Shown piece after piece: positions 41,848 through 63,023 of a stretch of DNA of 64,000 bases. Numbering within the stretch: position 1 is the first letter of the stretch; every line of letters begins with the position of its first letter. The stretch lies in IMG/VR virus record IMGVR_UViG_3300026097_001200, positions 32,001-96,000 of that record; one strand, written 5' to 3'. Position numbers and translations under genes: made by a program. The notes beneath the pieces were generated by a model. It searched no databases. It saw only the letters and a list, made by a program, of their open reading frames with translations, and was not told the DNA's origin. Origin of the DNA: a virus.

Positions 41848-41854
41848 AAGTCTC

Positions 41855-42562
41855 CTAGGTTACAAATGCACGTTCAAGTACAAACGTGCCTGGATTTTTC
41901 TTATTGCCTTCAGTGTATCCATTGGATACTAAAAGATTTTTCATGTCTTGGTTGAATGCCATACTGCCGCATAACATCACTCTATCTGTTTCTGGGTTAC
42001 TATTAGTCATTATAGCGCCAGATTCAATATGTTTTTGTATACGTCCTGTGTTAACAAATTCTTCCTGAGTTACTGTCGGGAAATAATCTATGTCAAGATC
42101 TTGCAAAAACTCGTGATAACTTAATAATTCAGCAGGTGTTCTCACAGTCCAGGTTACATGTACTCGTTTGTAAATATTGAAGATTTCTCCGTCTCGTAAC
42201 AAACTGATAAAAGGTGCAATGCCAGTTCCAGTTGCCATTAGCCAAAGATCGTGTCCTGGTTGCACAAATTGTGTTGTTAAACTTCCTGTTGGTCGATCGC
42301 CTACTTCTATAGTATCACCAGGTTGTACATGTTGTAGTCTACTTGTTAACGGACCATCGGGTACCTTAATACTGTAAAATTCCAGAAACGGATCTCCTGG
42401 TGCACTGGTAATACTGTAAGCTCTCATGAGATCATTATCTCCCATTCCTATCATTGTAAACTCACCAGCACGAAAAGTAAAGTCATTTGGCTTTTCTGTT
42501 CGGATCCTAAACAGTCGATCTGTGTAGTGTTCTACTTCTGTTATTTTTAATATTTCTGACAT
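41855..42562 (-). CDS. fpr: ferredoxin-NADP+ reductase
   Basis: [28 protein letters not shown]. Confidence 0.93.
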
Positions 42563-43272: not shown

Positions 43273-44768
43273 ACTCGTGTGTTATATAATTTCTCGAATC
43301 TTTGTGCATCTTCAACCGTATCAACCATCGGTTCGCCACGGATATTCAAGCTGGTGTTAAGCAACATAGGACAGTCTGTTAACACGTACCATTTCTCTAA
43401 AAGCTTTCTTATACCACTGGCGCTGTCCTTGGGTACAGTTTGTACTCTGCTGGTGCCGTCTACATGCACAATAGCAGGATACAATTCAGGATGTTTACAA
43501 TAGGCAGTAACCTGCATGTAAGGACTGCTGGAAAATCCTTTGGGCATTGCAAAGTATTGATCTGCATATTCTTCCAAGATCACAGGTGCAAATGGACGAA
43601 ACTTTTGACGTTTCTTAATAGTGTTTACTAGATCTTTGATATCGTCGCCTCTAGGATCTGCTAGTAGACTTCTGTTGCCTAAAGCTCTAGGACCAAATTC
43701 AGCACCTCCGGCAGCTACACCTACAATGCGATTTGTTAGCAATTCGTCAAGTAGTTCGTTAACTGGGTATTCACCTTCGATGCATGTACCGATGTAAGGG
43801 TGTTGCCAATTCACACGCTTACCGTAGCGCAATGCTGCACAGCCAAGTCCGCTGCCGGCATCACCAGGATTGGGCATGATCCATACATTGTCAAAGTTGA
43901 ATCCAACATTGCGATTTGCAACACAATTAAGTGCTACGCCTCCCATGTACACTAGATTCTTGCTTTTTCCCAGTTCAGCAGCTATACACATAACATCTTG
44001 AATTAATTCTTCGGTAATGGTTTGAGCTGCAAATGCTATTTCTTCGTTGCTGTAGTCTTCCCAGTGACTGGCATCTATGCCTGTGTGAAAATTTTCTCGA
44101 AACTGTAGTTTGTTGTCTTCATAGAAATAACGCTGTTTCATCTGTGATTCAAGCATGTTGTTGCTCATAAGCGACTTGGCTTTTTCGTGTCCAAACGCTG
44201 CCATGCCCATGGTAATATATTCTTCGTCCATTGGACGTAGACCTACACGTTGCGTAATAGCACTGTAAAACAATCCAATACTGTGAGGATATCTTTGCCC
44301 CCAGAGTTTTTTATAACGTGCTCGTCCGTTGCGATCATAGTATGCATGATATATGCTGATGGTGTCAAGTTCGCCAATGGCATCAATAACAACCACTGTG
44401 GCATCGTCATAAGGAGAAGTTTGAAATCCTGCGGCTGCATGACTGAGGTGATGCGGATAACAGCTGGTGGTTAAATTGCTGTTCCAGTGATCTCCGAGCA
44501 TGAATTTTAATGTGCCGTTTAGGCTCCATTCAGACCGGGTTGGTTGTCCACTGATCCATTGTTGCATATTGTGCATCCATGGACGTTCGTAGTATGCAAC
44601 ATGTTCAATTGGATATTCAAAACAACGATCCATTATGGATTTACAGAGATGCCGGTCGTGTTTATTCTTGCTGAATCTTTCACTGTGTGTTGCAAATTGG
44701 ATATTGCCATCACGATCAAGCACACACACACCTGCATCATGGAATCCTGCACTAATTCCTAGTATCAT
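43260..44768 (-). CDS. O-carbamoyltransferase (NodU/CmcH/TobZ family)
   Basis: FHD, HHLSHA, GGVALN, GDAG, EFGPRALGNRS, RPFAP, HVDGTSRVQTV, LNTS. Confidence 0.95.
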   Translation of the reverse strand: MILGISAGFHDAGVCVLDRDGNIQFATHSERFSKNKHDRHLCKSIMDRCFEYPIEHVAYYERPWMHNMQQWISGQPTRSEWSLNGTLKFMLGDHWNSNLTTSCYPHHLSHAAAGFQTSPYDDATVVVIDAIGELDTISIYHAYYDRNGRARYKKLWGQRYPHSIGLFYSAITQRVGLRPMDEEYITMGMAAFGHEKAKSLMSNNMLESQMKQRYFYEDNKLQFRENFHTGIDASHWEDYSNEEIAFAAQTITEELIQDVMCIAAELGKSKNLVYMGGVALNCVANRNVGFNFDNVWIMPNPGDAGSGLGCAALRYGKRVNWQHPYIGTCIEGEYPVNELLDELLTNRIVGVAAGGAEFGPRALGNRSLLADPRGDDIKDLVNTIKKRQKFRPFAPVILEEYADQYFAMPKGFSSSPYMQVTAYCKHPELYPAIVHVDGTSRVQTVPKDSASGIRKLLEKWYVLTDCPMLLNTSLNIRGEPMVDTVEDAQRFEKLYNTRVCTP

Positions 44769-44929: not shown

Positions 44930-45997
44930 TCAATGATCGGCCAGTGCCCGAATTTGTTGAGCCATGTAGTCTTGATCACTCCAGTGATACGAATACTCTG
45001 CATGTTGATCATTGGTACTAACACTGTGTACATCTAAATAATCGTTAAGCAGTGCCCAAATGGTTTCAAAATTATCTGTGCCAAAGCTAGCATGCAAGTC
45101 TACTTGCCCTATCTGCGGATGCCCAATTGTGAGACTTTTGTCCTCAGGATCAAATCCGTTTGCTATTAGCCAACTTCTAAAATCTGCCATTTCACGTTGA
45201 AAAAATTCATAGTTGCCAGGATTGTTTGCCCATTCGATATCAAAGTCTCCGGCAGCTTCGGTTTGACTGTTCAACGATGTAGTAACCAACTCGTCAATTC
45301 TGCTGTCTCGTCCTTCGTCGTGAAATACTTCCCAGTGATGTTTACCTACAGCTTTGTTAACTCCTACAAATACACCGCCCAATGGTCTGGCCAGTGTTTC
45401 TACTCCAAACAGTTCATAGTCACTTTCGTCTAATGTAAATCTCGGAGCATTGAGCCAGCACATCAATTGACTAGGTCTACGCCACTCAGGTGCATGTAGT
45501 TTTTTACGCATGCTTAGTACAAGACTTTCGTATTCATGGCACAGCAAATTCAGCTGACGTATGTGCCAGCGAGTCATGTCGTTTGCCTGTTTGTAATAAG
45601 GGCTGATATCTGCACTGGTTCCTTGTAGATCTTCAAAGTATCTATGCAACCAATTCATTTTTTCCTGAACCAGTTTGTGCCCGGGTAAATCCTCACCTAC
45701 TGGTCCAGTGGTTATTGTGTTTTCAACTGTGAAGTGGTCATGAATAGCATAGTCCAAGTTGCTAGCGTTGATTGCTGCAATGCTGCGATTGATTTGATCG
45801 CAGATGTATTCTGCACTGCGTTCACCGTCAGGAAAGCCAAAAAAGCAATAGTTCTTTTCTAGATGTAGATCTCTGCTTAGTATTGTGTTTAGTGCGTCAA
45901 GCCATTTTCTCGACAGGCCGTTGTCGTATACATCAATGTGCACCGGCAACAGTGATCCTGATGTACGATTCTTTAGCTCGATTGAAATTTTATCCAA
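44930..45997 (-). CDS. hypothetical protein
   Basis: Long ORF; TTG at 45997 overlapping the upstream stop favoured over 46075; N.LH..FE, LN..CH..E and GK motifs. Confidence 0.7.
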   Translation of the reverse strand: MDKISIELKNRTSGSLLPVHIDVYDNGLSRKWLDALNTILSRDLHLEKNYCFFGFPDGERSAEYICDQINRSIAAINASNLDYAIHDHFTVENTITTGPVGEDLPGHKLVQEKMNWLHRYFEDLQGTSADISPYYKQANDMTRWHIRQLNLLCHEYESLVLSMRKKLHAPEWRRPSQLMCWLNAPRFTLDESDYELFGVETLARPLGGVFVGVNKAVGKHHWEVFHDEGRDSRIDELVTTSLNSQTEAAGDFDIEWANNPGNYEFFQREMADFRSWLIANGFDPEDKSLTIGHPQIGQVDLHASFGTDNFETIWALLNDYLDVHSVSTNDQHAEYSYHWSDQDYMAQQIRALADH

Positions 45998-47306
45998 TAA
46001 TTGGAATTGATTGCCACCAGTCATAAATGTCTCTGTTGTGTTCCTGTAAAATATCGCCGTATCCATAGTTATCACTGCGGATACTCTCTAGTCGTAATAC
46101 TCGCTTTTTACCTGCGACCAATCCTGACTGCCAGTCATCTGGCCATTGTTCTTGAAAGGTTGGCCTGTTTTTTAGCTGTAATAGTACGTCTTTTAGTGCG
46201 CCATTGGGTACGCTCTGTGATAAGCTGTCAACTTGTTTATCTAACAATTCTCGAGGCAATGCCAATGGACTTAGCACAATATCCGGAGAGAATCCAAATA
46301 CAACTTTTGCTAGTATATCCACACCCAGATCGTCGGCTAGCTGTTGCATAGGCTCTACTTCAAACAGCCCCGGCAGTGTGAGTGTGAAGTCTAATCGCAT
46401 TTGTCTGCGATTTTTCTGTAGGTCTACACCTTGTTTAAAGTTATCTAAAAACTGTTGATAATTCAAGCCAGTGCGTATGTATTCGCCGATTTTACCAGTG
46501 CCATCTATGCTAGCACATATCTGCCAGTCTCGTATGTTACTGATAATGTCTTGATATAGATGCGCACCTTTGTACTCAATTCTACTGAGATTTGTATTGT
46601 ACCGAGCATAAAGTCCAGGACCGTCTCCCAATTCTACGATCCTGGACATATACCTCCAATGTTGCTCATACATTAGAGGTTCTCCGCCTACCCAATAAAC
46701 TTCTTGCACCCTGTGTTCTTCAACAGCTTGAGCAAATTCAGCTTCAATCTGAGTGTCTTGAAATTTGGATATTTCTGCACGGACTTCGGGACGCATCCAA
46801 TTGTTTTTAGGATTGTCCCAATCGATCATGTTGTGTTTTCGTTGTTCAGTTTCCCAGGCTGAACTCAACATGTCCCCGCAGGTTCTGCATTTAAAGTTGC
46901 AGAGATTACTGAAACGATAGTCCCAGCTAACAGGTTGCATACTGGTATGTCCTGATTCGTCTGTGTTTTCCCATATATCGTCGTAGTGATGCTTAAACAG
47001 ATGCCAGAAATAATCTCTATATACATCAGTGTTTAATAGTTTGTCATTGCACACTTCGCACTCGCTGAGGGTTTCGCCTGACATCATTCTACGGCGCACA
47101 CTTTTCATGTGCTCGCTGTTCCAGTGTTCTTCTAGAGTGCTTGGTTGGTATTCGCCAGTGCCTGCGTCTGTGTCAATGTACTGTTTGAAATTCTGCGCAG
47201 GTTCTCTGCTGGCACAACACATTCTGCGCTCTGTTTGTGGACTGAGATAGGTGTGTGTCCACGGAGCCATACACAGACTGTGCGGTTTTTCTTTAGGTTT
47301 TGTCAT
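45990..47306 (-). CDS. radical SAM protein with N-terminal Twitch/SPASM-like domain
   Basis: CMAPW...CC...CEVC; CNFKCRTC; GGEP. Confidence 0.9.
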   Translation of the reverse strand: MTKPKEKPHSLCMAPWTHTYLSPQTERRMCCASREPAQNFKQYIDTDAGTGEYQPSTLEEHWNSEHMKSVRRRMMSGETLSECEVCNDKLLNTDVYRDYFWHLFKHHYDDIWENTDESGHTSMQPVSWDYRFSNLCNFKCRTCGDMLSSAWETEQRKHNMIDWDNPKNNWMRPEVRAEISKFQDTQIEAEFAQAVEEHRVQEVYWVGGEPLMYEQHWRYMSRIVELGDGPGLYARYNTNLSRIEYKGAHLYQDIISNIRDWQICASIDGTGKIGEYIRTGLNYQQFLDNFKQGVDLQKNRRQMRLDFTLTLPGLFEVEPMQQLADDLGVDILAKVVFGFSPDIVLSPLALPRELLDKQVDSLSQSVPNGALKDVLLQLKNRPTFQEQWPDDWQSGLVAGKKRVLRLESIRSDNYGYGDILQEHNRDIYDWWQSIPIIG

Positions 47307-47715
47307 TGTGTAAAGAGGCTACTCTGCGTCTTAGATCGCTGCTGCTGAACCGATGTTCTCTTTTATTGAAGTATAACTGAATACCACGCTTTTTGCAAAT
47401 ATCTTTGCCAGTGAAGTCATGCTCTCTGTATTCTTCTCCAAGTATGCGCACATCTATGTGCATCATTTCTAAGATGTCTTCTAAATCTCTTTCATTTTCG
47501 TACACAACAATTTCATCTACATAGCGCACAGCCTGTAGCTGTGTATATCTTTCTACCAGTGTTTGCACAGGAGAGTTTTTGTTAGCACGGTCGCGGCTTG
47601 GATCCACTTGAAGTCCTACCATTAAGTAATCGCACTGTTCCTTTGCTTCGCGCAGCATTGCTACATGTCCTGCATGTAACAGGTCAAATGTACTACAGGT
47701 AAATCCTACTTTCAT
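47293..47715 (-). CDS. cytidylyltransferase (TagD-like HxGH nucleotidyltransferase)
   Basis: TFDLLHAGH, YVDE, RFSSSDLR. Confidence 0.9.
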   Translation of the reverse strand: MKVGFTCSTFDLLHAGHVAMLREAKEQCDYLMVGLQVDPSRDRANKNSPVQTLVERYTQLQAVRYVDEIVVYENERDLEDILEMMHIDVRILGEEYREHDFTGKDICKKRGIQLYFNKREHRFSSSDLRRRVASLHNDKT

Positions 47716-48935
47716 TGCACACCCTCATACTCAATCCATTCTGCTAATTCACTGTGATGATCTCTAAGGTCTTGACTGCGCTTGAAATCCAAGTCTCTTA
47801 CCTTCATGCGTAGTATTTGTCCGTCGTGACTTGGGCCGCCGTTCATAAAATCAATTATACGCTCGAACTCTTGTTTATGCTTGGGTCCAACATCGGCACT
47901 GCGAAGTCGCTGTTCGATTTCATGTTTTGCACGACTAGGTAATGTGCTAATACTGAAATAATAAGCTTCGTGCATCATGTTCCAGTATACAAAATCAAAC
48001 TCCTGCTGGTCAATCCAATTAGCCAGTGTTTCTAGATATGTAACATTGAACACATTTACTGTGCTACATACCTGAAGTTGTATTATATCAGGGTAACGTT
48101 GTTTAAGCTCCCGGAAACGAGAGATATTCTCGTTTACTAGATTCCACTCAGCATTACTGCGTTGATACTCAAAGCGATCTTCTACATCATCTATGCTGAA
48201 TGCAATCTCAACAGTCTTAAAGTGCTTCCAAAGATCTTCGCCGGATTCTGGATAAATTGTACCGTTTGTGTTGTAGTGAATTTCTACATTGTTTGCGATG
48301 CCTTTGTCAACCAAGCTTTGCAAGATGCCAAAGTGTTCTTGAATCATAAACGGTTCGCCGCCTGTGAATTCAATATAGCGTATATCATCGCTTACATTAT
48401 CAAATTGATCCCAGAACGTTTCAGTTTCTTTTGGCCAGGCACCTTTTTTCAACATCTCATAGTGATAGCTGTCTTTTTTATCGCCTTCTTCTCTTCTATG
48501 AAATTGCAATTCCTCGGCAGCAAACTGTGAACTAGACCATGAACCACAAATTCTGCACTTGAGATTACAGATGTTGCCAAGTTTGAGATCAAGAAACATC
48601 AAAGGTTTAGCATCCACAGTCCATTCCTGTTCCGGTAGCACATGTTTCAAGCGATCCAAAGTGTGCATGCGTTTACTGGTACGGCCTGCACGTTCTTCCT
48701 TCCAGCATTTCCTACATGTGCGAGGTTGCTTGCCATCTAGAAACTGTTGTCTTAAATCCTGCATGTAATCGCTGCGTTGTATTTCACCCAAGTCGCTGGC
48801 AATAAGTTCAAATTTTTCACCGTTGTTGTCTTTGATTTCGTCTTCGGCAAGACAACAAGGTCGAACTGTACCAATGGGACTGGTTTCTAAACTAATCCAT
48901 GGTAATACACAAAACTGTTCGTGTGGTAAATTCAT
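47712..48935 (-). CDS. radical SAM protein with N-terminal Twitch/SPASM-like domain
   Basis: CVLPW...PCC...CRKC; CNLKCRIC; GGEP. Confidence 0.9.
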   Translation of the reverse strand: MNLPHEQFCVLPWISLETSPIGTVRPCCLAEDEIKDNNGEKFELIASDLGEIQRSDYMQDLRQQFLDGKQPRTCRKCWKEERAGRTSKRMHTLDRLKHVLPEQEWTVDAKPLMFLDLKLGNICNLKCRICGSWSSSQFAAEELQFHRREEGDKKDSYHYEMLKKGAWPKETETFWDQFDNVSDDIRYIEFTGGEPFMIQEHFGILQSLVDKGIANNVEIHYNTNGTIYPESGEDLWKHFKTVEIAFSIDDVEDRFEYQRSNAEWNLVNENISRFRELKQRYPDIIQLQVCSTVNVFNVTYLETLANWIDQQEFDFVYWNMMHEAYYFSISTLPSRAKHEIEQRLRSADVGPKHKQEFERIIDFMNGGPSHDGQILRMKVRDLDFKRSQDLRDHHSELAEWIEYEGVQ

Positions 48936-50653
48936 CGTAGTGCCTCTAATTCTGGAATTTGTTCTAGTATGTTTTCGTTTCTTATTTGATCAAGCTGATC
49001 GGTCTTGGACCAAAACTCATCTATTAGTGCTGTGTTGTCTGTGCTGTTCATAAACCGTATTGCACTTTCGAAGCCTTGGGTAGCACGTTGTAGATCATCC
49101 TGCGGACGCAACCATTCCAGGTGTTGTTCCCATTTGTGTTGTAGTTTTGCTTTGTACTCTGCAGGTGCAATGTCAATCCTGTAATGCCTTGGATCTTGTA
49201 GTATGTTAACATTGAGATCCTGTGCACGTAACAAACCTTTGTTGACCCAGTCTTGGTGGAAATCAGTAATATGCCATGCATTCATTATACTCAGTGTAGG
49301 ACTAATATAAAAGTCCACGTCAGGACAGATTTCCAGCATCTGCTGTCTGTTGCGTTCCACGTTTGCCCAGGTAGTGCCTTTGCGAATATACTCTGCGTGA
49401 TTACCCATTGCATCGAGACTGGCACCGACAGCTACACTGTCAAACTTTTTCCAGTAGTCAAACACCAGTCTATCCTTGAGTTTGACTTCAGTAAAGTTGC
49501 TGTTGTAGATTAAACGTACATCAAATCTGCCGCGACGTTCAAGTTCTTCTAAAATGTTGTAGTGTTCTATCATCAACAGAGGCTCACCGCCAGCAAAATA
49601 AATTTGCTCTACGTCGTCGATGTGCTCGACCAACTGTTCCCACATATCAGTTTCGTGTCTGCCAGCATAGATAAGCACACTGTTTTGTTTTTTCCAATCG
49701 TCACCTGCTAGCTTGGCTTGATCTTGATACCAACTACTAGAGAATATATGTCCGCAACTTCGACAGCTTAGATTACAGAGATTACTAAAACGTATGTCCC
49801 AGTAGGTCATTGAAAATTGGTCTACACTACCGTCTTGTTTGGTATCTTTGATGCGTTTAATATGGTGACCATGGTGCTTGTTTGCGCTTTGTCTTCCTGA
49901 GAAAAATCCTGCATCTTCTTGCTCATAGCATCGAGTGCACCAAGAGTTTTCTTTTTCAGATAACATGTCTCTGCGAAGTTCGCGCATGCGCTCGCTGTTG
50001 TTTATATTCTCTAGTGTGTCCTGCTTGGCATTACCTGCAGGGCCTTCACGCATTTCAGCATGACAGCATGGGTACACATCACCAGTGGGATATGCATGTA
50101 AATGAATCCATGGATATATACAAAAGCGTTTACTGCCAGTGAGATAAAACTGTTCACTGTCAGTTACGTCATTGAGATTAATTTTAATTGGATTTAGACT
50201 ACCGTAACGATATTCGTCTTTTTTACTAGTGGGTAATCTTTCTAATATTCTTCTATGATGTAGATCTTGTTCAACGTAGACAAATTCAACTGACACAGGG
50301 TCATTGCTTAGATCTTTTAATCGACTTTGTTGTTCTTGCCAGTGTGAGCTATTAGTTACTATTATAACAAAAAAATTGCTAATGTCAACATGGTTTAATG
50401 CCAGTTGCAGATTTTGCAACACCAGGCCCACAGTATCATCTTGTACATAACTGTCAGTGGTAGTTGTAAACACCAGGCGTTCTTGGTCACTGTAAGCATC
50501 CTTTCGTAGTCGTGCAAGCAATTCAACCAACTGTTGTTGCATGTCTTCGTAGTGCAATTCAACATAATAATCAAGATCAACAGTGGACACAACTGTGTAG
50601 GTTTTTTCTATACTGTTTAAGGTATTTTCATATTTCATAAATTGTTGTACCAT
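48932..50653 (-). CDS. radical SAM protein with Twitch/SPASM-like domain and extra ~170-aa N-terminal domain
   Basis: CIYPW...PCC...CTRC; CNLSCRSC; GGEP. Confidence 0.9.
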   Translation of the reverse strand: MVQQFMKYENTLNSIEKTYTVVSTVDLDYYVELHYEDMQQQLVELLARLRKDAYSDQERLVFTTTTDSYVQDDTVGLVLQNLQLALNHVDISNFFVIIVTNSSHWQEQQSRLKDLSNDPVSVEFVYVEQDLHHRRILERLPTSKKDEYRYGSLNPIKINLNDVTDSEQFYLTGSKRFCIYPWIHLHAYPTGDVYPCCHAEMREGPAGNAKQDTLENINNSERMRELRRDMLSEKENSWCTRCYEQEDAGFFSGRQSANKHHGHHIKRIKDTKQDGSVDQFSMTYWDIRFSNLCNLSCRSCGHIFSSSWYQDQAKLAGDDWKKQNSVLIYAGRHETDMWEQLVEHIDDVEQIYFAGGEPLLMIEHYNILEELERRGRFDVRLIYNSNFTEVKLKDRLVFDYWKKFDSVAVGASLDAMGNHAEYIRKGTTWANVERNRQQMLEICPDVDFYISPTLSIMNAWHITDFHQDWVNKGLLRAQDLNVNILQDPRHYRIDIAPAEYKAKLQHKWEQHLEWLRPQDDLQRATQGFESAIRFMNSTDNTALIDEFWSKTDQLDQIRNENILEQIPELEALR

Positions 50654-52053
50654 TCGGCTAGACGGGGGAACGTTACTGCAAAGTTCTTGTTACGTCTTCT
50701 GTCATACTGCTCAAAGAAACGTTTGAAATCTTGTTGTAAAAGCTTGATATCATTCTGCCCTTGTTGAAGTTCATAGGGCGTAAGATCATGTTTAGTTACA
50801 TCTTCCTTGTGCGGATCTACTACATTGCGTATGTATTTGCTGATACGCTGAATATGGTCTCTTTCCAAATGGTCGATTACATCTAACACATCAGTACTGG
50901 CCATGAATTCATCAATTTCATTTGCAATGGTTTCTCGGACATCTTCGGGCAACACAACAATGTTTTGAAATGTTGGGAAACGTACTGGATTAATAGTAAA
51001 CATCAAATTTTTGCCCTGAGGTTTGGCGGTTTTTTTCTTTTCTACCAGCCACTTTAAAAAATCAACAAAGCCATCAGCATTTGGTGCATTAATAGTGCCA
51101 ATAATACTGATATCCCCTATGTCTTTGCTTGCAATTAAACGATCAAGATTTCGTTCCCATTGTTGCCAATCCAGACCGTCCCTCACATACTCGCCCTGAG
51201 CACCAACACTTTCACTGCTAACATAAGTCCACACAGGTAAATCTATCCTGCTGATTTTGTCTAGCATTTTGTCAACCACTTTATCGTCGTATGCAAGATT
51301 GGTTGTGATTTCAATCCTGCATGTTGCCTTGCTTGGATTTTTCTCTAGCCAGTCCAACAGTCTCCACATATGAGGGCTCATCATCGGCTCACCGCCTGTG
51401 ATACGCAGTTGTTTTAAACTGGCAGCTAAACTGTCTTCCCACCACTGAAAAAATGCTTCTGCGTACTGGTTAACTTCGTTGGGTCCACTGGTCATGCTGT
51501 CATCGCAAGGCGAAACATAATGTTGTCTGCGATCAGTTTCCAGCCCTTCATATGCGCCGTTATTGCGCACATCAGTTGCCCAACTGCTGCTGATACTAGG
51601 ACAACAATAGCTGCATGCCAACTGACAGGTTCTATCAAACGCAATTTCTAAATATAGTAAATCAACATCTTGATCAGCTGGAGCATCAAATGCTGACTGT
51701 AATTGTTCTTCACTGGCAATAGTACTTAACCAATACCTATCTGCAAGATTATTAGGATCTGTTTCTTCCATAACCCAACAAAATTGACAGTTAGCTGGTT
51801 TCTCGCCACGTTGCATCATTGCACGTTCATTTTTCTTAACTGAGGTATTGTGCAATGCTCGGGGATTTTTTTTAATCTCTTCTATATCAATTGCATGCGG
51901 TGGATTGTGATGGCAACTTGTAGTCCACCCTTGCTGAAGCCACACACTGGCATTATACCACTTAGCACCACAGAAGCTAGGACTCTTGCTGTTAAGCACT
52001 CGATCTTTCCACTCTCGGTATTCAGTGTTGTTGTAGAGTTTTATTTTTTTCAT
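50635..52053 (-). CDS. radical SAM protein with N-terminal Twitch-like domain
   Basis: CGAKW...SCHH...CQFC; CQLACSYC; GGEP. Confidence 0.9.
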   Translation of the reverse strand: MKKIKLYNNTEYREWKDRVLNSKSPSFCGAKWYNASVWLQQGWTTSCHHNPPHAIDIEEIKKNPRALHNTSVKKNERAMMQRGEKPANCQFCWVMEETDPNNLADRYWLSTIASEEQLQSAFDAPADQDVDLLYLEIAFDRTCQLACSYCCPSISSSWATDVRNNGAYEGLETDRRQHYVSPCDDSMTSGPNEVNQYAEAFFQWWEDSLAASLKQLRITGGEPMMSPHMWRLLDWLEKNPSKATCRIEITTNLAYDDKVVDKMLDKISRIDLPVWTYVSSESVGAQGEYVRDGLDWQQWERNLDRLIASKDIGDISIIGTINAPNADGFVDFLKWLVEKKKTAKPQGKNLMFTINPVRFPTFQNIVVLPEDVRETIANEIDEFMASTDVLDVIDHLERDHIQRISKYIRNVVDPHKEDVTKHDLTPYELQQGQNDIKLLQQDFKRFFEQYDRRRNKNFAVTFPRLAEWYNNL

Positions 52054-53402
52054 AGTTGGGAGTACCAGCTGTTTAGATCAGGAAATGCTGTAGCAAAATC
52101 CAAGTCTCTGCGCTCGTCATACTGCGAATAAAACTTTTTAAAGTCGTTTAAAAGTTTTGGATGTTCAAAGGTTTCTGAGTGCGGAGTTTTTACAACATCT
52201 AAGTAATCTATTAAACGTTGTAGGTGATTGATTTCGTGTTGATGTAGCAGTGTATTGTTCTTGTGAGTATTTAACCATGATTCAAGATCTTGTTTATATT
52301 TTGTGCGTATGTGGTCAGGAAATATCAACGGACTCTGAAAACTAGGAAAACGTAAAATATTCAATGTAAAGTTAGGACGGTCCTTGCCAAACTCTGCTTT
52401 CCATTCTAGTACCCGATCTAAAAATTCAGGTAGACTGTCCAGGCATAGTGCATTGATTGTGCACATGTTATGCAAACTGCGTATTTGCGGACTGCGTACC
52501 AATAGGTCCATATTGCGTAACCATAGATTCCAATTTAATCCGTGGCGGATGTACTCAGCTTGCTGATCCATACTTTCGTTACTGGTGTAAATATCCAGTT
52601 CGATATCTTTGCAAGCATCCAGTAGTTCTTGAATCTTTTCAGTAGGCAGGCTCAAGTTGCTGTTGATAGCCAGGCGAGTTTTACTTTTTCCACGATTTTG
52701 TTTAAACCATTCAATCAGTCTCCAGGTATATCCGCTCATCAATGGTTCGCCGCCAGTGATCCTCAATTCTTTCAGTGTGCGGTGAAGATCACTTTCCCAC
52801 CAACGAAAAAATGCTTCTACATATGGGTTTTCTTCATTGATAGTAAATAGTTGTGCACTGTCATGTGGATGTGTAAAGTGATTACGACCGTCACTGACCA
52901 GTCCGTTGTATGCGCCATTGCGTTTTACGTCCTTTACCCACGTACTGGAAAATGCAGGATTACAATAGCTGCATGCCAGTTGACAGGTTCTATCAAAACT
53001 AATCTCCAGTGTTTGCAGATCTATATCTGCATCCGGGTCTGTTTCAAAAGCAGTTTGCAGATCATTGTCGTTATAAATCACACTTTTATACACACGATCG
53101 CTGACTGCGTCACGACCCATGTCTTCTATTTTCCAACAGTACTCGCACCCAGGTGGACGCTCGCCACGCTGCATCATTGCTCGATCTTCTTTTTTCTCTG
53201 GCGTGTTGTGCAATAGCTTGGGATTATCAGTGATATCCTTTACAGGCACCAGATGCGCAGGTGGATGATGACAACTAGTAGTCATGCCCGACCCAAGCCA
53301 GATAGTAGCATTGTACCACTTGGCTCCGCAAAAACTAGCACTTTTACTGTCTAGTACTCGCTTGCGAAATTCTAAGTCTGATTCGTTGTTAAGTCTTGTC
53401 AT
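52050..53402 (-). CDS. radical SAM protein with N-terminal Twitch-like domain
   Basis: CGAKW...SCHH...CEYC; CQLACSYC; GGEP. Confidence 0.9.
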   Translation of the reverse strand: MTRLNNESDLEFRKRVLDSKSASFCGAKWYNATIWLGSGMTTSCHHPPAHLVPVKDITDNPKLLHNTPEKKEDRAMMQRGERPPGCEYCWKIEDMGRDAVSDRVYKSVIYNDNDLQTAFETDPDADIDLQTLEISFDRTCQLACSYCNPAFSSTWVKDVKRNGAYNGLVSDGRNHFTHPHDSAQLFTINEENPYVEAFFRWWESDLHRTLKELRITGGEPLMSGYTWRLIEWFKQNRGKSKTRLAINSNLSLPTEKIQELLDACKDIELDIYTSNESMDQQAEYIRHGLNWNLWLRNMDLLVRSPQIRSLHNMCTINALCLDSLPEFLDRVLEWKAEFGKDRPNFTLNILRFPSFQSPLIFPDHIRTKYKQDLESWLNTHKNNTLLHQHEINHLQRLIDYLDVVKTPHSETFEHPKLLNDFKKFYSQYDERRDLDFATAFPDLNSWYSQL

Positions 53403-53403
53403 G

Positions 53404-54528
53404 TTAATATGTTACCCAGCCGTATTCAAATTCAGGCAATACTTTAAGTATATTCCGTTTCCTAATATTATCTCTTAGTTTTATTTCCTTACAAAACTCA
53501 TCCCAGAGTCCTCTATTAAAAAAATATTTTTGGTCAAGGAACTGTTTAAGTCCTGGATGCAAATCCTTAACTAATTCAATCTTGTTAACTGCACCAGCGT
53601 AAATTTCCGGGGGTAGATTGTTCCAAGTGTATATTCGCGGAGTAAACAGTTTTGCAAAATGACAATTTAATTGTTTTTTATTTGCATATTCTACAACTTC
53701 TATTATACGACAGAAATTTAAATTTGTCACTGTACAATTAAGTGTAATGGCATTTAGATTATCAATTGTTTTAAAAGTATCTATATTGGAGTCAATGTCA
53801 TTCCACTTACTAGGAAATCTAATATACTCATTTACAGGTCCTACTCCATCAATACTTATCATGATGTCAACACTGTTGAATTTTGAAAAAATCTCCTGCC
53901 ACTTTTCAGGAAACACTGTTCCGTTTGTCTGAATGCGCAAGTGTATTTCTGAACACCAATCAGGATCAGCATCAATCAGTAACTGTTGTATCTCAGGCAC
54001 AATCAAGGTTTCGCCTCCACGAAGATCCAACACTTCTATGTCTTGCTCGACAACACTAGCAAAAATTTCACCAAGTCGCTCTGAAGTGTATTGACAATCG
54101 CTCTGTCGTGGTGTTGACTTACCTATAAGTCTGTCTTCTGCTAGTAACATAGAACTGTCTTGAGGAACACACATTAAGCATTTCAGATTGCAAAGATTGC
54201 TTACGTGAAATTCTATACGTCGAGGGAACTCGATATTTAAGTCTGCATCTGTGATATTAATAGCAGCTAGAGCTTCTGTTCTTGGTGATGTTCCGCTAGC
54301 TTCTTCCTGTACATAGCATCCATTGCAATAGCTGTTCTTTTTACCAGCAATCATGTCACTACGAAGACTAGTCATTTGGTCACTTAAGAAAAAATCTTGT
54401 ATACTGTGATTATTCAATGAGTAGTCTGGCTTAGCAAAGCAACATGGTGATTGTTTTTTGTCGTTGCGAATTACTACGCTGGTAAATGCATATGGACAAA
54501 TAGCTTCATTATTCTCGGTGTTTATCAC
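53404..54528 (-). CDS. radical SAM protein with N-terminal Twitch/SPASM-like domain
   Basis: CPYAF...PCC...CNGC; CNLKCLMC; GGET. Confidence 0.88.
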   Translation of the reverse strand: MINTENNEAICPYAFTSVVIRNDKKQSPCCFAKPDYSLNNHSIQDFFLSDQMTSLRSDMIAGKKNSYCNGCYVQEEASGTSPRTEALAAINITDADLNIEFPRRIEFHVSNLCNLKCLMCVPQDSSMLLAEDRLIGKSTPRQSDCQYTSERLGEIFASVVEQDIEVLDLRGGETLIVPEIQQLLIDADPDWCSEIHLRIQTNGTVFPEKWQEIFSKFNSVDIMISIDGVGPVNEYIRFPSKWNDIDSNIDTFKTIDNLNAITLNCTVTNLNFCRIIEVVEYANKKQLNCHFAKLFTPRIYTWNNLPPEIYAGAVNKIELVKDLHPGLKQFLDQKYFFNRGLWDEFCKEIKLRDNIRKRNILKVLPEFEYGWVTY

Positions 54529-56011
54529 TGTAATCCTCGATATGCTGTATTATTTTTTTATGTTTTGCGTAAGAAGCAAATCCACCATGCGCATTATCAT
54601 ATTCATGGTCTATGTTTTTGTATTCTTCAACATGCCAGTAAGGATGTAATGTATTACAACTGTCAATTGATTTTTTCATTGGCAACTCTAACCATGTACA
54701 TATATGTGCTAAGGTTTCCTGCGGCGAAAAAATTATGTCTTTTAAAAGAATTTTCTTAATGTTTCTGTTTTCAATGGCGTCGTTGAAGTGCGCAGGAAAG
54801 GCAAACAAATTGTTGGCAAAATTCAGTGCAGATTCTTTGTGCAAGACAGTGTGTAAAGTGCGCAATACATCTTCTAATTCAAAATTTTTATTTTGTATTA
54901 CAATCAAATTTTTTACTCGGGTTTGTAAATAGCCAAACCATTCGTTGATGTTTATCTTGTGTTGCTCTAAGAGCTTATTATGACTTTCGATTGATGTTTC
55001 ATAAAACAGATTATCACTGTCAGTAATATGATGTAAAACCTCCGTTAAGCATTGGCTAGCTACGCTGGTATTATGTACAATTAAATTACAGTCTGCAAGG
55101 GTTTTGTTGACTACCTGATCGTAAATCTCATTTAATATTTTTTCTTTTTTTTCTGCAATGTAAAATACAGCAGGATAAATGTTTCTAACTTTTGGAGTAG
55201 CCAACAAGTCTACAAATTCTTGACTCTGTATTGGTAACTGTTTTAAACAGTCATGATAAATTATGCTGTCAGTACTTGATATTGATTTTAATTGTGTTAA
55301 ATGTTGCCTTATTTTTTGTTTATGTATATCTGGAATTTTTTCACGCAACACTGGATTTTTATCTCTGAACAAAGTTAGAATTTTTTCATCTTGATCTAGG
55401 TACGCCTGTCTATCCTGCCAAAAATTGATAGATTCTTCTATCTCCTTGGTAGATCGTGCACTATTCTTATGTTTCCACCATTGACATAAGGTAGTTAACG
55501 TCTTCACTGGTCTGTTAACCAACTGTTTCATTTTAACTACATGTAAGTTGCAGTGTTCGATACTGTTAATCTGGTTTGATGCATTTTGAAAAGTAGAGAT
55601 TGCTCTTGCTAGTTCAATAACATTTGTAACTTTTGTAAAACTGCAAAAGGGCATTTCGGGTTGTCTATTGTTGAGCAATTCTAGTATGCAGTTTGTAGGA
55701 TCAATGACCACTGTAGGACCCGTGTCTGCAATTTCTAGAATGTCAGATTCTATGTCATTGACATTGTAATGTAATCTCACTATGCTACTTGTTGTGTTTG
55801 TATTTGTAAGATGATATTCATCGTGTCTATTGATAAAATTATCACGATAATTGTGTACGCTACCGTTTTCGGTTATAACGTCTTCAATGCTTTGGTAATT
55901 TAGATCATCTAACCATCCTAGTGCCCAGCATAAAAAGTTTCCGTAATCTCCGCCTGTATGTACTACACGGAGATCAAACTGTTCGAGATATTTCAAATAG
56001 TCGTCATGCAT
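54509..56011 (-). CDS. hypothetical protein with two tandem degenerate sulfotransferase-like halves
   Basis: GGDYGNFL N-terminus; LVNRPVKTLTTLCQW and IIFSPQETLAHICTWL repeats. Confidence 0.5.
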   Translation of the reverse strand: MHDDYLKYLEQFDLRVVHTGGDYGNFLCWALGWLDDLNYQSIEDVITENGSVHNYRDNFINRHDEYHLTNTNTTSSIVRLHYNVNDIESDILEIADTGPTVVIDPTNCILELLNNRQPEMPFCSFTKVTNVIELARAISTFQNASNQINSIEHCNLHVVKMKQLVNRPVKTLTTLCQWWKHKNSARSTKEIEESINFWQDRQAYLDQDEKILTLFRDKNPVLREKIPDIHKQKIRQHLTQLKSISSTDSIIYHDCLKQLPIQSQEFVDLLATPKVRNIYPAVFYIAEKKEKILNEIYDQVVNKTLADCNLIVHNTSVASQCLTEVLHHITDSDNLFYETSIESHNKLLEQHKININEWFGYLQTRVKNLIVIQNKNFELEDVLRTLHTVLHKESALNFANNLFAFPAHFNDAIENRNIKKILLKDIIFSPQETLAHICTWLELPMKKSIDSCNTLHPYWHVEEYKNIDHEYDNAHGGFASYAKHKKIIQHIEDYSDKHRE

Positions 56012-57428
56012 GATTGTTTTTACTCCTATACTCGCACAGCTTCCACCAGTCGCTCATCTCTGGAAAAGTTTCCTGGAAGTTTGTATTTCTTCTTCGATCA
56101 TGCTCGCTGAAAAATCTATAAAAGTCAGCCTGTGCACAATGTAGAAATTCTGTGTCTAAATCTTGCCCGTTTCGCATCCAGGCAATGTCACGATCCAATC
56201 TCTGTATTTCGTAGTCCTTAAATCCTTTAAGTCGTGTGTCTGCTGTTTCGGCTTGTGCAATCATCCAGCTCCACAATCTTTCCAGTTGTACTACATAGCT
56301 TTCTGGCAGTATCTGCAGGCTCTGCCACTCAGGTTGTCTTAGCACAGGAGTATCAAACCAAACTCGCTGATAGGTCTCGCTGTACACTTTACGCAAGCCC
56401 AGTATACCAGCAAATAGATCACCTAGGCTAGGAACACTGAGATTGTTCATAGTTACAATAAAAGTAAGACTGCTACGCTCTGGCACTTCATTTAAAAATT
56501 GATTGCATCTATCCCACATGAGATCAAAGTCAAGACCGTTGCGCATGTATTCTGCTTGCTTGCCCCAGCCGTCGACACTGACAAACTGCATATAGTGTTC
56601 AACATGTCCTTCGTTGCACAAACGCTTGACATATTCTAAATATTTTTTCCACAAACGTTCATCAACGCTGAAATTACTAGTAACATTTAAATGCAATTTG
56701 GGATTAGGATTTTCCAACACATAATCAAATACACGATAGGTATTTTTATCCATCAACGGCTCGCCACCGGTCATACGAAAGTGTTCTAGTTCTGGATATA
56801 GTTCAGGCCACCATTTCCAAAATGCTTCTACATAAGGATTGTGTTCTCTTGCAGGTATCGGGCGGCGATCTCCTTGAAAGTGTTTTGGGTCGTTGTGCGG
56901 TGTACTAGTAGGCCATGCACCATGTTTTTCAGTTTCTTCCATCCACGAACTACTAAACTGCGGACTGCAATAGCTGCACCGCAGATTGCATGCACTGTTA
57001 AAGTTTACTTCTACATATGCAGGATTCACATCTTCGTCACCGGTGCTGGCAATAATATTATCAAAATCTTTGGCGGCCCACGGCTCACCTGATCTATAGT
57101 GTCTGTCGCTGAGTTTACCGTTATCCTCCATTGCCCAACAATAGCTGCATTCTTCTGGACGTTCTCCGGCAAGCATACGTTTACGCTGTTGTTTTTTCCA
57201 AGCAGTGTTGTGCAGTGCGCTGGGATTGTTTTCGAGTTCAAGTGCATCAATTCTATGCAAAGGAGGATGATAACAACTGTTGTTATAGCCATTGGTGAGG
57301 TGTAAACTAACCTGTTTCCACTTTGCTAGACACATGCCAGGGCCAACCTGATTCAGTGCGTCTCGCATGTCTTCTGCGTTGGTAATAAACCCACTGCGAA
57401 AGTCTTTGTTTACTTCGTCACCTTTCAT
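56004..57428 (-). CDS. radical SAM protein with N-terminal Twitch-like domain
   Basis: CLAKW...SCYH...CSYC; CNLRCSYC; GGEP. Confidence 0.9.
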   Translation of the reverse strand: MKGDEVNKDFRSGFITNAEDMRDALNQVGPGMCLAKWKQVSLHLTNGYNNSCYHPPLHRIDALELENNPSALHNTAWKKQQRKRMLAGERPEECSYCWAMEDNGKLSDRHYRSGEPWAAKDFDNIIASTGDEDVNPAYVEVNFNSACNLRCSYCSPQFSSSWMEETEKHGAWPTSTPHNDPKHFQGDRRPIPAREHNPYVEAFWKWWPELYPELEHFRMTGGEPLMDKNTYRVFDYVLENPNPKLHLNVTSNFSVDERLWKKYLEYVKRLCNEGHVEHYMQFVSVDGWGKQAEYMRNGLDFDLMWDRCNQFLNEVPERSSLTFIVTMNNLSVPSLGDLFAGILGLRKVYSETYQRVWFDTPVLRQPEWQSLQILPESYVVQLERLWSWMIAQAETADTRLKGFKDYEIQRLDRDIAWMRNGQDLDTEFLHCAQADFYRFFSEHDRRRNTNFQETFPEMSDWWKLCEYRSKNNHA

Positions 57429-58276
57429 AGATCTTTTTTATACTCTGCGTAGATTTGATCGCCGTTGTACTTTTCTGGACAGAATTTGCACTGCGGTATA
57501 CTATTGCCGATATTGGCAAAGAACTGTTCTTTGTTTTCTGCGTCTACTGTTAGCGGTTGATAACTTTGCATGAGTTTTCTGTCACTGTTACTTAATTGTA
57601 ATTGATACTGCGAGTCAAATTCTGGCAGCAGTGCTACCACGCCACACTTGTAGAGTTTTCCGTCTATCCAGTGGTGACAATTTTTCATGTGGCAATTGCT
57701 GTGAGCCAATTCTGGATCGCTGTTGTGTAACCGCTTTACACCAAGTTGATCTATTATAGATCCTTGATGAAACCACCAGTTGTATTCAATCCGGGTAGCA
57801 ATGCCATTGCAGTCTCGCAAAATTCTGTAAACATTGTACGGATCATCGTTGTTTACAGTATCGATCACTGGCCCTTCTAACCATTGATGAACTCTAGAAA
57901 CCACATCCGGTACATGATTTTCGTTGTGTATACCAACCCATACGCTAAATCTGTCTTTGTACTCTCTATTGAGATCGTAAAGATCTTGTCTGTGTTCAAT
58001 TCTATAGCCATTGGTAATCAATCGCAAGTATGTGTCGGGCCAAAGCTCAAGTATGCCGCGGCACCAATCAATTACATCTGGATTAAGCAAAGGTTCTCCA
58101 CCAAGCACTGCACAGTGTCTAATAGACACAGATTTACTCCACTCTCGGTACACAGGTTCTAAATCTGCCCAGCGTTGGCGTCCACGGAAGTTGTAGTTGT
58201 TGAATCTGTTGCAACCAGGGCAACTGAGATTGCACACATTGGTAATGTAAAATTCAGAATAATCTAATTGGTGCAT
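57425..58276 (-). CDS. radical SAM protein (short, C-terminal Cys domain)
   Basis: CNLSCPGC; GGEP; C...C...KC...CKFC. Confidence 0.88.
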   Translation of the reverse strand: MHQLDYSEFYITNVCNLSCPGCNRFNNYNFRGRQRWADLEPVYREWSKSVSIRHCAVLGGEPLLNPDVIDWCRGILELWPDTYLRLITNGYRIEHRQDLYDLNREYKDRFSVWVGIHNENHVPDVVSRVHQWLEGPVIDTVNNDDPYNVYRILRDCNGIATRIEYNWWFHQGSIIDQLGVKRLHNSDPELAHSNCHMKNCHHWIDGKLYKCGVVALLPEFDSQYQLQLSNSDRKLMQSYQPLTVDAENKEQFFANIGNSIPQCKFCPEKYNGDQIYAEYKKDL

Positions 58277-59244
58277 GGTATACTTGCTATAAAATCTTTG
58301 TTCATATCCAGCAAAAGCTGCCTATTGTGCTCTAGTGTGGGCAACATTTCGTTGTAGATTTTTTTGATTTCGTCGGCGGGTTTTTTGGCTAGACGATCAA
58401 TTACTTTTTTAATCTCGCCTGGCTGCCAGTCAGCTGGATCTTCGGCATAACCTTCGTCCCACCATTGATTAAAAGTTTTGAATCCTAATTTTTGTAATCT
58501 ATGTAAAAAATGCTGGGACCCTTGTACTATAAACGGAGTTTGCATTATGATAGGTCTCCAGATTTTTTCTGTTGGGAAAAATGTATTTCCTACATAGGAA
58601 GTTTCGCACACAATTTCTACAAAAAAATTTCTGTATTGCGAATACATGTTACAGTGTTGATTCATTAAAATTGGATACTCTACTGTTTCCTGTAATCTGA
58701 TTGGACAATGCCGTAAAAAGTTTGATATAGACGCAAGATCACCGGTTCCTTGTATTTCTACTAGAGTGTCAAGTCCAAGGTTGTTCTTATGATAATCGTC
58801 TGAGTAATCATAATGAAAAGTTTGATTTGTTTGCTGTCTATACTTGTTGAACAAGTAACTGCTTAGATCCAGTCTATGACAATTACTACGTCCTACAAAA
58901 ATACCAAATGTTTTTGTAATATCTTTGTTGATTGGTTTGTTTTCTAGTTTTTTAACAGTGTTAAAAACAAAATGATTAGGAAAAACAGTTTCGAAATTGA
59001 TTTGATCAACAGACTGCTGATAGGTATTGCAACTTGTAACAGTGATATTATCGAGATTATAATTGTGTTCTTTGCAGATACGTATCAATGAATCGAATAT
59101 ATCTAGATTTTCAAAAGCAGGTCCTTCAGACAGAAGATCAATACACACAGGTTGATTGTTGCAAACAGCCGATGTAAATTGCGAAACAACTTCTATTTTG
59201 TTCCACACATAGCTGTCGCTGGTAATCAATCGTATTGTTACCAC
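58264..59244 (-). CDS. glycosyltransferase-like protein (GT10/exostosin-like)
   Basis: IVCET...PTEKIWRPI...PFI.QG...L..LGFKTF..WWDEGY. Confidence 0.55.
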   Translation of the reverse strand: MVTIRLITSDSYVWNKIEVVSQFTSAVCNNQPVCIDLLSEGPAFENLDIFDSLIRICKEHNYNLDNITVTSCNTYQQSVDQINFETVFPNHFVFNTVKKLENKPINKDITKTFGIFVGRSNCHRLDLSSYLFNKYRQQTNQTFHYDYSDDYHKNNLGLDTLVEIQGTGDLASISNFLRHCPIRLQETVEYPILMNQHCNMYSQYRNFFVEIVCETSYVGNTFFPTEKIWRPIIMQTPFIVQGSQHFLHRLQKLGFKTFNQWWDEGYAEDPADWQPGEIKKVIDRLAKKPADEIKKIYNEMLPTLEHNRQLLLDMNKDFIASIPCTN

Positions 59245-62997: not shown

Positions 62998-63023
62998 GTA
63001 AGTAATTATACATGAATTCTACA
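62986..63023. repeat. perfect 15-bp inverted repeat covering a start codon and promoter
   Basis: TGTAGAATTCATGTA-8 nt-TACATGAATTCTACA. Confidence 0.9.

Follow-up and report, generated by a model that had tools for sequence, protein, structure and literature searches.

An array of radical SAM paralogs with a predicted N-terminal twitch domain in uncultured jumbo phages

Why would a virus carry seven related radical SAM genes within a single operon? The question is raised by a 64,000-nt stretch of a viral contig (IMG/VR record IMGVR_UViG_3300026097_001200, positions 32,001 to 96,000; hereafter the window). An earlier note, made from the letters alone, had noticed that seven ORFs at 45990-57428, together with one at 11265-12521, share a layout in which an auxiliary Fe-S domain precedes the radical SAM core. 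All eight ORFs, named here by their lower coordinate, are present at these positions on the minus strand, and both their profile matches and their invariant cysteines confirm the common layout.

A catalogued family with the twitch domain first

The eight ORFs match the NCBIfam family NF033640 (N_Twi_rSAM, 'twitch domain-containing radical SAM protein' in the catalogue) over their full length, with 224-403 bits and E values of 4e-66 to 1e-120. The curated cut-off is 170 bits, and such scores lie far beyond chance. A ninth member (252 bits) is found on the same contig beyond the window, at contig 16982-18109 (L001:4956-6320). The permuted order of domains is not new, because NF033640 already curates this twitch-first layout; what is new with respect to the family definition is the five-paralog phage cassette, the split into CC and SC subtypes and the fusions between neighbours. 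As to whether the proteins fall within a subfamily that has been characterised, NF033640 is a catalogued family for which our literature search found no characterisation, neither a paper on it nor one on the activity of any member. With 9,176 clusters at 50% identity (profile search, E <= 1e-30), it is a large family that, as far as the literature found goes, is unstudied.

In the alignment of the eight window paralogs (45990 numbering), four cysteines N-terminal of the core (C12, C31, C83 and C86) are invariant, as are the core C136-x3-C140-x2-C143, the GGE motif, N239, S266, E275-Y276-x-R278 and the C-terminal R410. The radical SAM hallmarks CxxxCxxC and GGE are invariant across 78 sequences and, outside the core, only four Cys positions are invariant or nearly so. 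Twitch domains have 3-4 conserved auxiliary Cys, compared with 7-8 in SPASM domains, which hold two clusters (PMC9477430). The count of four would therefore place these proteins with the twitch type, with one auxiliary cluster, rather than with SPASM. Pfam agrees on the position of the domain: in the CC subtype, the N-terminal match is to SPASM and Radical_SAM follows (residues 9-87, then 109-316). Three CC proteins pass the SPASM cut-off of 21.5 bits (23.9, 25.9 and 47.9), and 53404 stays below it with 18.9. None of the four SC proteins matched Pfam SPASM; they align to the CC proteins through NF033640, with the same four Cys. The earlier note's picture of an expanded family whose auxiliary domain, of twitch type, comes first is supported, and the ORF at 21546-22511, cited there as an example of the usual arrangement, does carry a C-terminal SPASM (Pfam).

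The array and its surroundings contain the following genes, with the number of related viral loci, out of 80, in which each was found where this was counted.

59238-60161, minus strand: candidate GT-A (GT2-like) glycosyltransferase, from ESM Atlas neighbours, heading the core cassette; 62/80 loci
57425-58276, minus strand: 283-aa radical SAM protein without N-terminal twitch, accessory; Pfam Radical_SAM E 4e-11, NF033640 only 27 bits
56004-57428, minus strand: N_Twi_rSAM, SC (SCYH), core member 1; NF033640 330 bits; 72/80 loci, 64-74% identity
54509-56011, minus strand: 500-aa accessory protein with no candidate function; no Pfam or PHROG match; relative in 1/80 loci
53404-54528, minus strand: N_Twi_rSAM, CC, rare accessory; 257 bits; ortholog in 0/80 loci
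52050-53402, minus strand: N_Twi_rSAM, SC (SCHH), core member 2; 303 bits; 78/80 loci
50635-52053, minus strand: N_Twi_rSAM, SC, accessory sister duplicate of 52050; 277 bits; 3/80 loci
48932-50653, minus strand: N_Twi_rSAM, CC, core member 3; 403 bits at residues 174-571; 79/80 loci
47712-48935, minus strand: N_Twi_rSAM, CC, core member 4; 337 bits; 80/80 loci, 63-94% identity
47293-47715, minus strand: cytidylyltransferase-like nucleotidyltransferase, accessory; Pfam CTP_transf_like E 6e-15; 1/80 loci
45990-47306, minus strand: N_Twi_rSAM, CC, core member 5; 292 bits; 74/80 loci
44930-46024, minus strand: conserved protein between the array and the carbamoyltransferase; AlphaFold2 pLDDT 83.6; 70/80 loci
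43260-44768, minus strand: NodU/CmcH-type carbamoyltransferase; Pfam Carbam_trans_N E 2e-38, Carbam_trans_C E 4e-49; 67/80 loci
41855-42562, minus strand: ferredoxin-NADP reductase-like flavoprotein (Pfam FAD_binding_6 and NAD_binding_1), operon end
41506-41847, minus strand: ferredoxin of 113 aa with two CxxCxxCxxxCP motifs, operon end
40469-41509, plus strand: amidinotransferase-family enzyme (ortholog profile), divergently transcribed; 50/80 loci
11265-12521, minus strand: N_Twi_rSAM, SC (SCHR), separate locus, inside the SC clade; 224 bits; 7/80 loci

Gene overlaps of 4-20 nt in the array are in line with paralogs that work together, and the two non-family genes 47293-47715 and 54509-56011 sit within it. 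The protein encoded by 48932 has a 170-aa N-terminal extension, most of its orthologs being 420-440 aa long. The ortholog profile of 40469 matches AGAT (3e-18) and StrB1, SxtG and HsvA (around 1e-14), and the ferredoxin and FNR-like genes (41506-42562) are rare among relatives. For 44930 there was no Atlas neighbour, no PDB sequence match and no Foldseek match; its model (VIA) reached only Z 7-9, against cyclophilin-like barrels (Z 7-8) and helical bundles, with no clear fold match. Pfam, PHROG and PDB profile searches returned nothing for 59238, 61117, 61907, 39345 and 58264. The nearest ESM Atlas clusters of 59238 are viral, one of them auto-named GT2-like (score 0.99), and several candidate glycosyltransferases of the operon are named from motifs or language-model neighbours alone. 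We do not claim the labels 'GT8-like' and 'GT10-like' that motifs had suggested, because hhalign showed no relation of the 61117 profile to a GT8 of Vibrio phage K566 or to a DUF6071 protein of Ralstonia phage RsoM2USA.

A conserved cassette with two subtypes

The five core paralogs (56004, 52050, 48932, 47712 and 45990) are only about 20% identical to one another, copies in the alignment sharing 18-24%. Orthologs of each, at 63-75% conservation, recur in an unchanging order in 72-80 of the 80 related viral loci. Some of these loci are on complete jumbo-phage contigs, and complete relatives of 337-353 kb have 6-9 copies each. The presence of the other copies (53404, 50635, 11265 and the ninth), which are accessory, varies between relatives. 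The closest non-self relatives of 53404 are only 37% identical, and 50635 is the sister of the 52050 group in both trees. We read the core paralogs as an ancient, non-redundant cassette with fixed order. A widespread clade of uncultured jumbo phages of about 340-350 kb has it as a core feature and keeps it strongly conserved. A megablast of the entire span found no match among cultured phages. RsoM2USA has two family copies only, of which gp202 is 48% identical to 52050.

The two subtypes distinguished in the earlier note hold up in the tree, where the SC proteins form a single bipartition (SH-aLRT 99) that takes in bacterial members too; the 56004 clade contains two Bdellovibrionales proteins. 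Within the 'CC' signature only the second Cys is invariant, and six relatives have C[S/T/L] at this site. The suggestion that the subtypes differ in the ligation of the auxiliary cluster was rejected on Cys count, because CC and SC proteins retain the same four invariant cysteines. We also rejected a recent, phage-only burst of duplication, because the paralogs are only about 20% identical and every lineage groups with bacterial proteins.

Fused neighbours and the sugar reading

Do the paralogs work together? Lengths of 700 aa or more occur in 39 of the best 150 representatives of the family, and 30 of these proteins resolve into two or three complete modules with a CxxxCxxC in every one. Long relatives of 47712 (n=72) comprise 49 that join a 48932-type to a 47712-type module and 18 that join a 47712-type to a 45990-type module, counted as clusters. 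In these fused relatives the linkers are 1-12 residues long and the order of modules is always that of the genes. A fusion of 56004-type and 52050-type modules was seen in four assemblies. Neighbouring paralogs are thus far known to be joined repeatedly, in three or more distinct pairings. Such fusions were confirmed at the DNA level in six IMG/VR contigs in which a single ORF of 837-857 aa lies in an otherwise identical operon; a fused form on a 343 kb contig (P0450) was not found in IMG/VR, and P0412 was taken instead. Not many radical SAM proteins are known to have two cores; the methanopterin methylase MJ0619 is one. Because neighbours are fused into one protein in related phages, the paralogs very likely act as a team. 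The fusions show functional coupling, though they do not by themselves prove a complex, and they give strong indirect support to the idea, voiced in the earlier note, that the paralogs may be subunits of a hetero-oligomer. They predict that neighbouring paralogs associate and share one substrate.

What might this substrate be? A sugar-related role would fit four independent gene contexts. The first is the array operon itself, with its GT2-like, cytidylyltransferase and carbamoyltransferase genes. The second is the region of the ninth paralog on the same contig, which has two SDR NDP-sugar epimerase/dehydratases; a GT1-like gene and a B12 radical SAM enzyme were also seen there. In Vibrio phage K566, the third, the family copies and two GT8 genes are intermixed. 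The fourth is that of bacterial arrays, mainly from Bdellovibrionota and Chitinophagales (CC-type copies only in the latter), which adjoin GT2, PfkB, carbamoyltransferase and AsnB-like genes; the bacterial tally is small, with 6 GT2 and 2 carbamoyltransferases among 123 neighbouring proteins. The association with glycosyltransferases and carbamoyltransferases was sampled at 16 loci, and in RsoM2USA a carbamoyltransferase lies three genes away from a family member. Of the earlier proposal of BtrN-like sugar dehydrogenases or epimerases, the sugar part is thus consistent with these contexts, but the likeness to BtrN is not supported, since the PDB sequence search matched BtrN weakly and in the twitch region alone (E 0.0067), and the two domains come in the opposite order. 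Searched against PDB sequences, a profile limited to the N-terminal domains gave too weak a signal (BtrN E 2, ChlB 0.08) and was dropped as evidence.

Building on the observed family membership, motifs, conservation, synteny, fusions and gene contexts, we infer cluster binding, physical association, a sugar substrate and a type of chemistry, and arrive at a co-operating, probably hetero-oligomeric radical SAM set that tailors a sugar, a reading to which we give a probability of about 0.55. The cassette belongs to a minus-strand operon of some 21 kb whose genes are translationally coupled. Each four-Cys N-terminal domain of twitch type is predicted to hold one auxiliary [4Fe-4S] cluster which, being fully Cys-ligated, would serve as an electron conduit, and the ferredoxin/FNR pair could supply electrons to the clusters. 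Working together, probably as a hetero-oligomeric multi-enzyme, the paralogs would all attack the same substrate, which is most likely a nucleotide-sugar or a sugar, each using a 5'-deoxyadenosyl radical to remove another of its hydrogens. The product would next receive a carbamoyl group and be transferred, to serve as an unusual glycan decoration. A bolder version, which we advance tentatively and would sooner expect to fail than to hold, makes the five core paralogs an obligate hetero-oligomeric 'radical SAM assembly line'. The sugar intermediate would be passed between active sites to yield a novel type of multiply remodelled, carbamoylated (perhaps amidinated) sugar displayed on the surface by the 350 kb phage clade and by Bdellovibrio-like predators.

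Comparison with known structures points both ways. Against the 47712 model (AlphaFold2 pLDDT 92.3), the radical SAM cores of BlsE, viperins, anSME and DesII score alike (Z 12-13), and three of them (BlsE 12.9, viperin-like 12.6, DesII 12.1) use nucleoside- or nucleotide-linked substrates, in favour of a sugar. Against it, the peptide enzyme anSME ties on structure and the best PDB sequence matches include RiPP maturases: 8vpo, a cyclopropyl synthase (PMC10878394), comes first at 1.5e-12, followed by SkfB and anSME. The paralogs could then be RiPP-type maturases, introducing crosslinks or epimerisations into a phage protein that the glycosyltransferases also glycosylate. Candidate targets would be the Ser/Thr-rich 253-aa protein (63042-63803) that heads the operon and the 1002-aa repeat protein at 36338-39346. 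Weak matches of 53404 to many RiPP maturase models, and a pilin-like protein (weak N_methyl motif) found behind one bacterial array, would suit this explanation too. We nevertheless consider it unlikely. The matches are confined to the core common to radical SAM enzymes and fall far under every family cut-off; no RRE family is among the Pfam or NCBIfam matches, the N-terminus being occupied by the twitch domain; no obvious short precursor-like ORF was noticed within 41480-41900 and 60800-63050; and the neighbours are carbamoyl-, amidino- and cytidylyl-transferases and SDR epimerases, that is, small-molecule and sugar enzymes.

The presence of viperin-like enzymes and BlsE among the tied structural matches would also agree with enzymes acting on nucleotides or DNA, in a pathway of base hypermodification, with protection of the phage genome as its role. 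This seems to us slightly more improbable again. Neither the viperin nor the MoaA model exceeds 37 bits (cut-offs 180-284), and the chromosomal arrays of Bdellovibrionota and Chitinophagales adjoin GT2/AsnB-like rather than DNA-modification genes, one DNA methylase near one array excepted. Least probable of all is that the paralogs are independent, each with its own substrate, and clustered by co-regulation alone with neither complex nor shared pathway: the gain and loss of accessory copies, the two copies that suffice in RsoM2USA and the CC-only Chitinophagales arrays would allow it, but the fixed order of the five core copies and the repeated fusions in gene order argue against it.

For the sugar-tailoring set that we prefer, RsoM2USA and K566 are cultured phages with a reduced system and offer a practical route to the product. 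They could reveal whether giant phages put unusual sugars on their virions or hosts.

Comparison with known radical SAM systems

How does the family compare with radical SAM enzymes that carry, or lack, an auxiliary domain? The core fold is shared with anSME, SkfB, CteB and 8vpo (Z around 12, E down to 1.5e-12). Unlike the family, anSME and the SPASM RiPP maturases have a C-terminal SPASM domain with 7-8 Cys and two auxiliary clusters (PMC9477430), act on peptides and often have an RRE domain, features that were not seen here. MiaB/RimO methylthiotransferases and class D methyltransferases resemble the family in having extra conserved Cys before the barrel (PMC9477430), but their N-terminal domains are not homologs of SPASM/twitch, whereas the family N-terminus matches Pfam SPASM. 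BlsE, DesII and viperin give the best structural matches to the core and keep similar genomic company of sugar enzymes; in contrast to the family, they are without an N-terminal twitch. DesII and viperin are not known to have an auxiliary cluster. The scores of the family are far below the NCBIfam cut-offs for such enzymes, as none of the viperin, MoaA and sulfatase maturase models was reached (<=35 vs 180, <=37 vs 284 and <=26 vs 349 bits). BtrN, the founding twitch enzyme, has a single four-Cys auxiliary cluster domain, as predicted for the family, and acts on a sugar-like substrate, but its twitch is C-terminal, it acts alone and not in arrays, and overall similarity is marginal. The closest correspondence is with NF033640 itself, which all nine proteins resemble in the twitch-then-core order, in the conserved Cys and in an end-to-end match above the cut-off.

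Family membership and domain order

All eight ORFs described in the earlier note are present on the minus strand, and each of them is matched from end to end by NF033640, the NCBIfam family entitled 'N_Twi_rSAM, twitch domain-containing radical SAM protein' (224-403 bits vs a curated cut-off of 170). The source contig carries nine genes of this type, the ninth being of the CC type and lying outside the window. When the eight ORFs, named here by their start coordinates, are aligned, four Cys residues (C12, C31, C83 and C86, numbering of 45990) are invariant before the invariant CxxxCxxC, downstream of which lie GGE, an E-Y-x-R motif and a C-terminal Arg. In CC-type proteins Pfam places the SPASM model at the N-terminus and Radical_SAM after it; in the control ORF 21546-22511, SPASM occupies the usual C-terminal position. 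Both the twitch-first layout and the conventional layout of the comparator, first read from the sequence alone, are thus confirmed. The permuted layout is not new, since it is already curated as NF033640; a literature search found no papers mentioning the family. Twitch domains, which hold one cluster, are told apart from SPASM domains by the number of conserved auxiliary Cys (PMC9477430). Because only four are conserved in the eight ORFs, the usual Cys-count criterion marks the N-terminal domain as a predicted twitch rather than SPASM domain.

Three further radical SAM features were observed. Outside the window, contig 13717-14772 (+; L001:1718-2773, in the region of the ninth copy) encodes a shorter protein of 351 aa that also has an N-terminal Pfam SPASM match (residues 42-108) and may represent a further, more divergent twitch-first lineage, because it scores only 38 bits against NF033640. 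The 283-aa radical SAM protein at 57425-58276 (-) has no N-terminal twitch domain, and its Cys/His-rich C-terminal stretch (CHMKNCHH...C...CKFC) could be a putative site for an extra cluster of its own. Finally, ORF 48932 starts with a 170-aa extension (window 50146-50653, -; residues 1-170) without any family match; its orthologs are mostly 420-440 aa, with long forms of 554-637 aa in a subset of relatives.

A fixed cassette and the fusion of neighbours

The genes that accompany the paralogs are the following:

63042-63803, minus strand: Ser/Thr-rich protein of 253 aa, heading the enzyme operon
59238: GT2-like protein
47293: cytidylyltransferase, within the array operon
44930: no assigned family
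43260: carbamoyltransferase, within the array operon
41506-42562, minus strand: 2x[4Fe-4S]-type ferredoxin and FNR-like flavoprotein, at the operon end
40469-41509, plus strand: amidinotransferase-family enzyme (ortholog profile: AGAT 3e-18; StrB1, SxtG and HsvA ~1e-14)

Metagenomic relatives of 47712 number in the thousands at ~70% identity, and 80 viral loci were fetched around such relatives. All 80 contain three to seven NF033640 members. Five paralogs are found in 72-80 of the loci with 63-75% identity each, the identity among the five themselves being 18-24%, and the order 59238, 56004, 52050, 48932, 47712, 45990, 44930, 43260 is invariable. Accessory in the same sample are copies 50635, 53404 and 11265, the plain radical SAM gene 57425, the cytidylyltransferase, gene 54509 and the ferredoxin/FNR pair. 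Copy numbers above the cut-off are 6, 7 and 9 in complete relatives and 2 in Ralstonia phage RsoM2USA; Vibrio phage K566 also reaches 2, with 3 more that match less well. The cassette is a real, strongly conserved feature of a catalogued but unstudied family.

Searching 1.84 billion cluster representatives with a family profile retrieved 9,176 clusters at E <= 1e-30. Among the best 150 representatives of these clusters, 39 reach at least 700 aa, and in 30 of the 39 two or three full modules can be told apart, every one bearing a CxxxCxxC. The 72 long relatives of 47712 comprise 49 in which a 48932-type module is followed by a 47712-type one, 18 joining 47712-type to 45990-type and four with two 47712-like modules, with linkers of 1-12 residues. 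One 56004-type plus 52050-type fusion was seen in four separate assemblies. In every case, module order equals gene order in the array. These fusions are not gene-calling artefacts, because on six sister-lineage IMG/VR contigs a single ORF of 837-857 aa replaces 48932 and 47712 in an otherwise identical operon. Together with the overlaps of 4-20 nt between array genes in the window, fusion in gene order argues that neighbouring paralogs would function jointly, probably in physical contact. Of the hetero-oligomer proposed in the earlier note as one alternative, joint action is therefore favoured, and contact between subunits is probable. The recurrent fusion of neighbours is our main new result and, with the fixed five-paralog cassette, it defines an unstudied multi-enzyme system.

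Source phage and descent of the paralogs

The source contig (105,331 bases, IMG/VR viral; the window is bases 32001-96000) is ~30% complete according to CheckV. Since relatives bearing terminal repeats span 337-353 kb, it represents part of a jumbo phage genome of ~350 kb. Megablast found no near relative among cultured phages; one ATPase encoded on the contig shares 50% identity with its counterparts in PA5oct-like phages. The whole phage cassette also occurs, at 55-70% identity, on two contigs of Haliscomenobacter sp. MAG EUL_031 (L084 and L085, 183 and 148 kb) and on a Legionellales MAG contig (L086), all three of which are probably phage sequences that were placed in bacterial bins. The assignment of two of them to Haliscomenobacter may point to a host within the Saprospiraceae, or it may be an artefact of binning.

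Across the phage clade, 78 family members were compared at the second ligand site: 39 have CC, 33 have SC and 6 have C[S/T/L]. The two subtypes are borne out: SC proteins (56004, 52050, 50635, 11265) form one bipartition (SH-aLRT 99 in an IQ-TREE quick tree, 100 in FastTree) and carry additional subtype-specific motifs. The suggestion that the subtypes differ in auxiliary-cluster ligation is unsupported; because one Cys is kept at the second site in both, each has the same four predicted Cys ligands. The SC bipartition takes in two Bdellovibrionales proteins and RsoM2USA gp202, and the CC paralogs 47712 and 48932 each cluster with bacterial proteins. The paralogs are therefore old lineages common to phage and bacteria, and a recent duplication burst in the phage is rejected.

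Bacterial members occur mainly in Bdellovibrionota, and in Chitinophagales and others as well; on chromosomes of 1.9-3 Mb, as many as seven stand in tandem. Arrays of 6-7 members were seen in a Bdellovibrionales chromosome (L142, 1.89 Mb) and two Chitinophagales loci (L106 and L107); that of L142 sets four or five recent near-copies beside older, distinct members.

Gene context and candidate chemistry

What might these enzymes act on? Because no NF033640 member has been characterised, the substrate has to be drawn from gene context, which most favours a sugar or nucleotide-sugar, a guess with about even odds of being right. The operon's GT2-like protein was assigned by language-model neighbours, and another operon protein has a methyltransferase-like VVDIGCG motif, read from sequence. 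The ninth paralog adjoins two SDR NDP-sugar epimerase/dehydratases (E 1e-48 and 4e-43), beside a GT1-like gene, a B12 radical SAM gene and the shorter N-terminal-SPASM radical SAM gene. Family members of Vibrio phage K566 are interleaved with two GT8 genes, and in RsoM2USA a carbamoyltransferase lies three genes from gp202. Bacterial neighbour proteins include GT2 (6/123), PfkB kinases (3), carbamoyltransferases (2) and one AsnB-like amidotransferase. The amidinotransferase-family protein 40469-41509, missed at the Pfam threshold of E 0.01, keeps a C-terminal 'GGISCCT' Cys motif; its gene lies beside the operon, is transcribed divergently from the array and is conserved in 50/80 related loci. 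The ferredoxin/FNR pair, found in few relatives only (L002 and the 'Legionellales' contig), could plausibly serve the radical SAM enzymes as a dedicated source of reductant.

In RsoM2USA (L082, record 125035-129043), three paralogous DUF6071 proteins, all hypothetical in the record annotation, flank gp202 and the carbamoyltransferase. Relatives of 39345-40472 (+) and 58264-59244 (-) cross-match in BLAST at 24-36%, and both have a 'TEK...P(F/I)...G' motif near the C-terminus; they look like distant paralogs, and the motif reminded us of GT-B fucosyltransferase-type enzymes.

47712 was modelled with confidence (pLDDT 92.3), but the protein has no close solved relative. BlsE (Z 12.9), viperin-like (12.6), anSME (12.2) and DesII (12.1) are tied and confined to the core. 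Core similarity to 8vpo and SkfB would also suit a RiPP-like protein maturation, as would the Ser/Thr-rich protein heading the operon, which has weak relatives (29-43%) at the same position in related loci and could itself be glycosylated or have a structural role; against this, no RRE domain was seen, nor any obvious precursor-like ORF in 41480-41900 and 60800-63050. The resemblance to viperin and BlsE suggests a nucleotide or DNA as target, with which the bacterial gene contexts do not agree. That the enzymes are independent and merely co-regulated is contradicted by the fixed gene order and the fusions.

Candidate reactions on a sugar or nucleotide-sugar are oxidation, epimerisation, dehydration and C-C bond formation. 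In BtrN and anSME, the auxiliary cluster has an electron-transfer role. By analogy, the putative, fully Cys-ligated auxiliary cluster of the NF033640 proteins would fit such a role.
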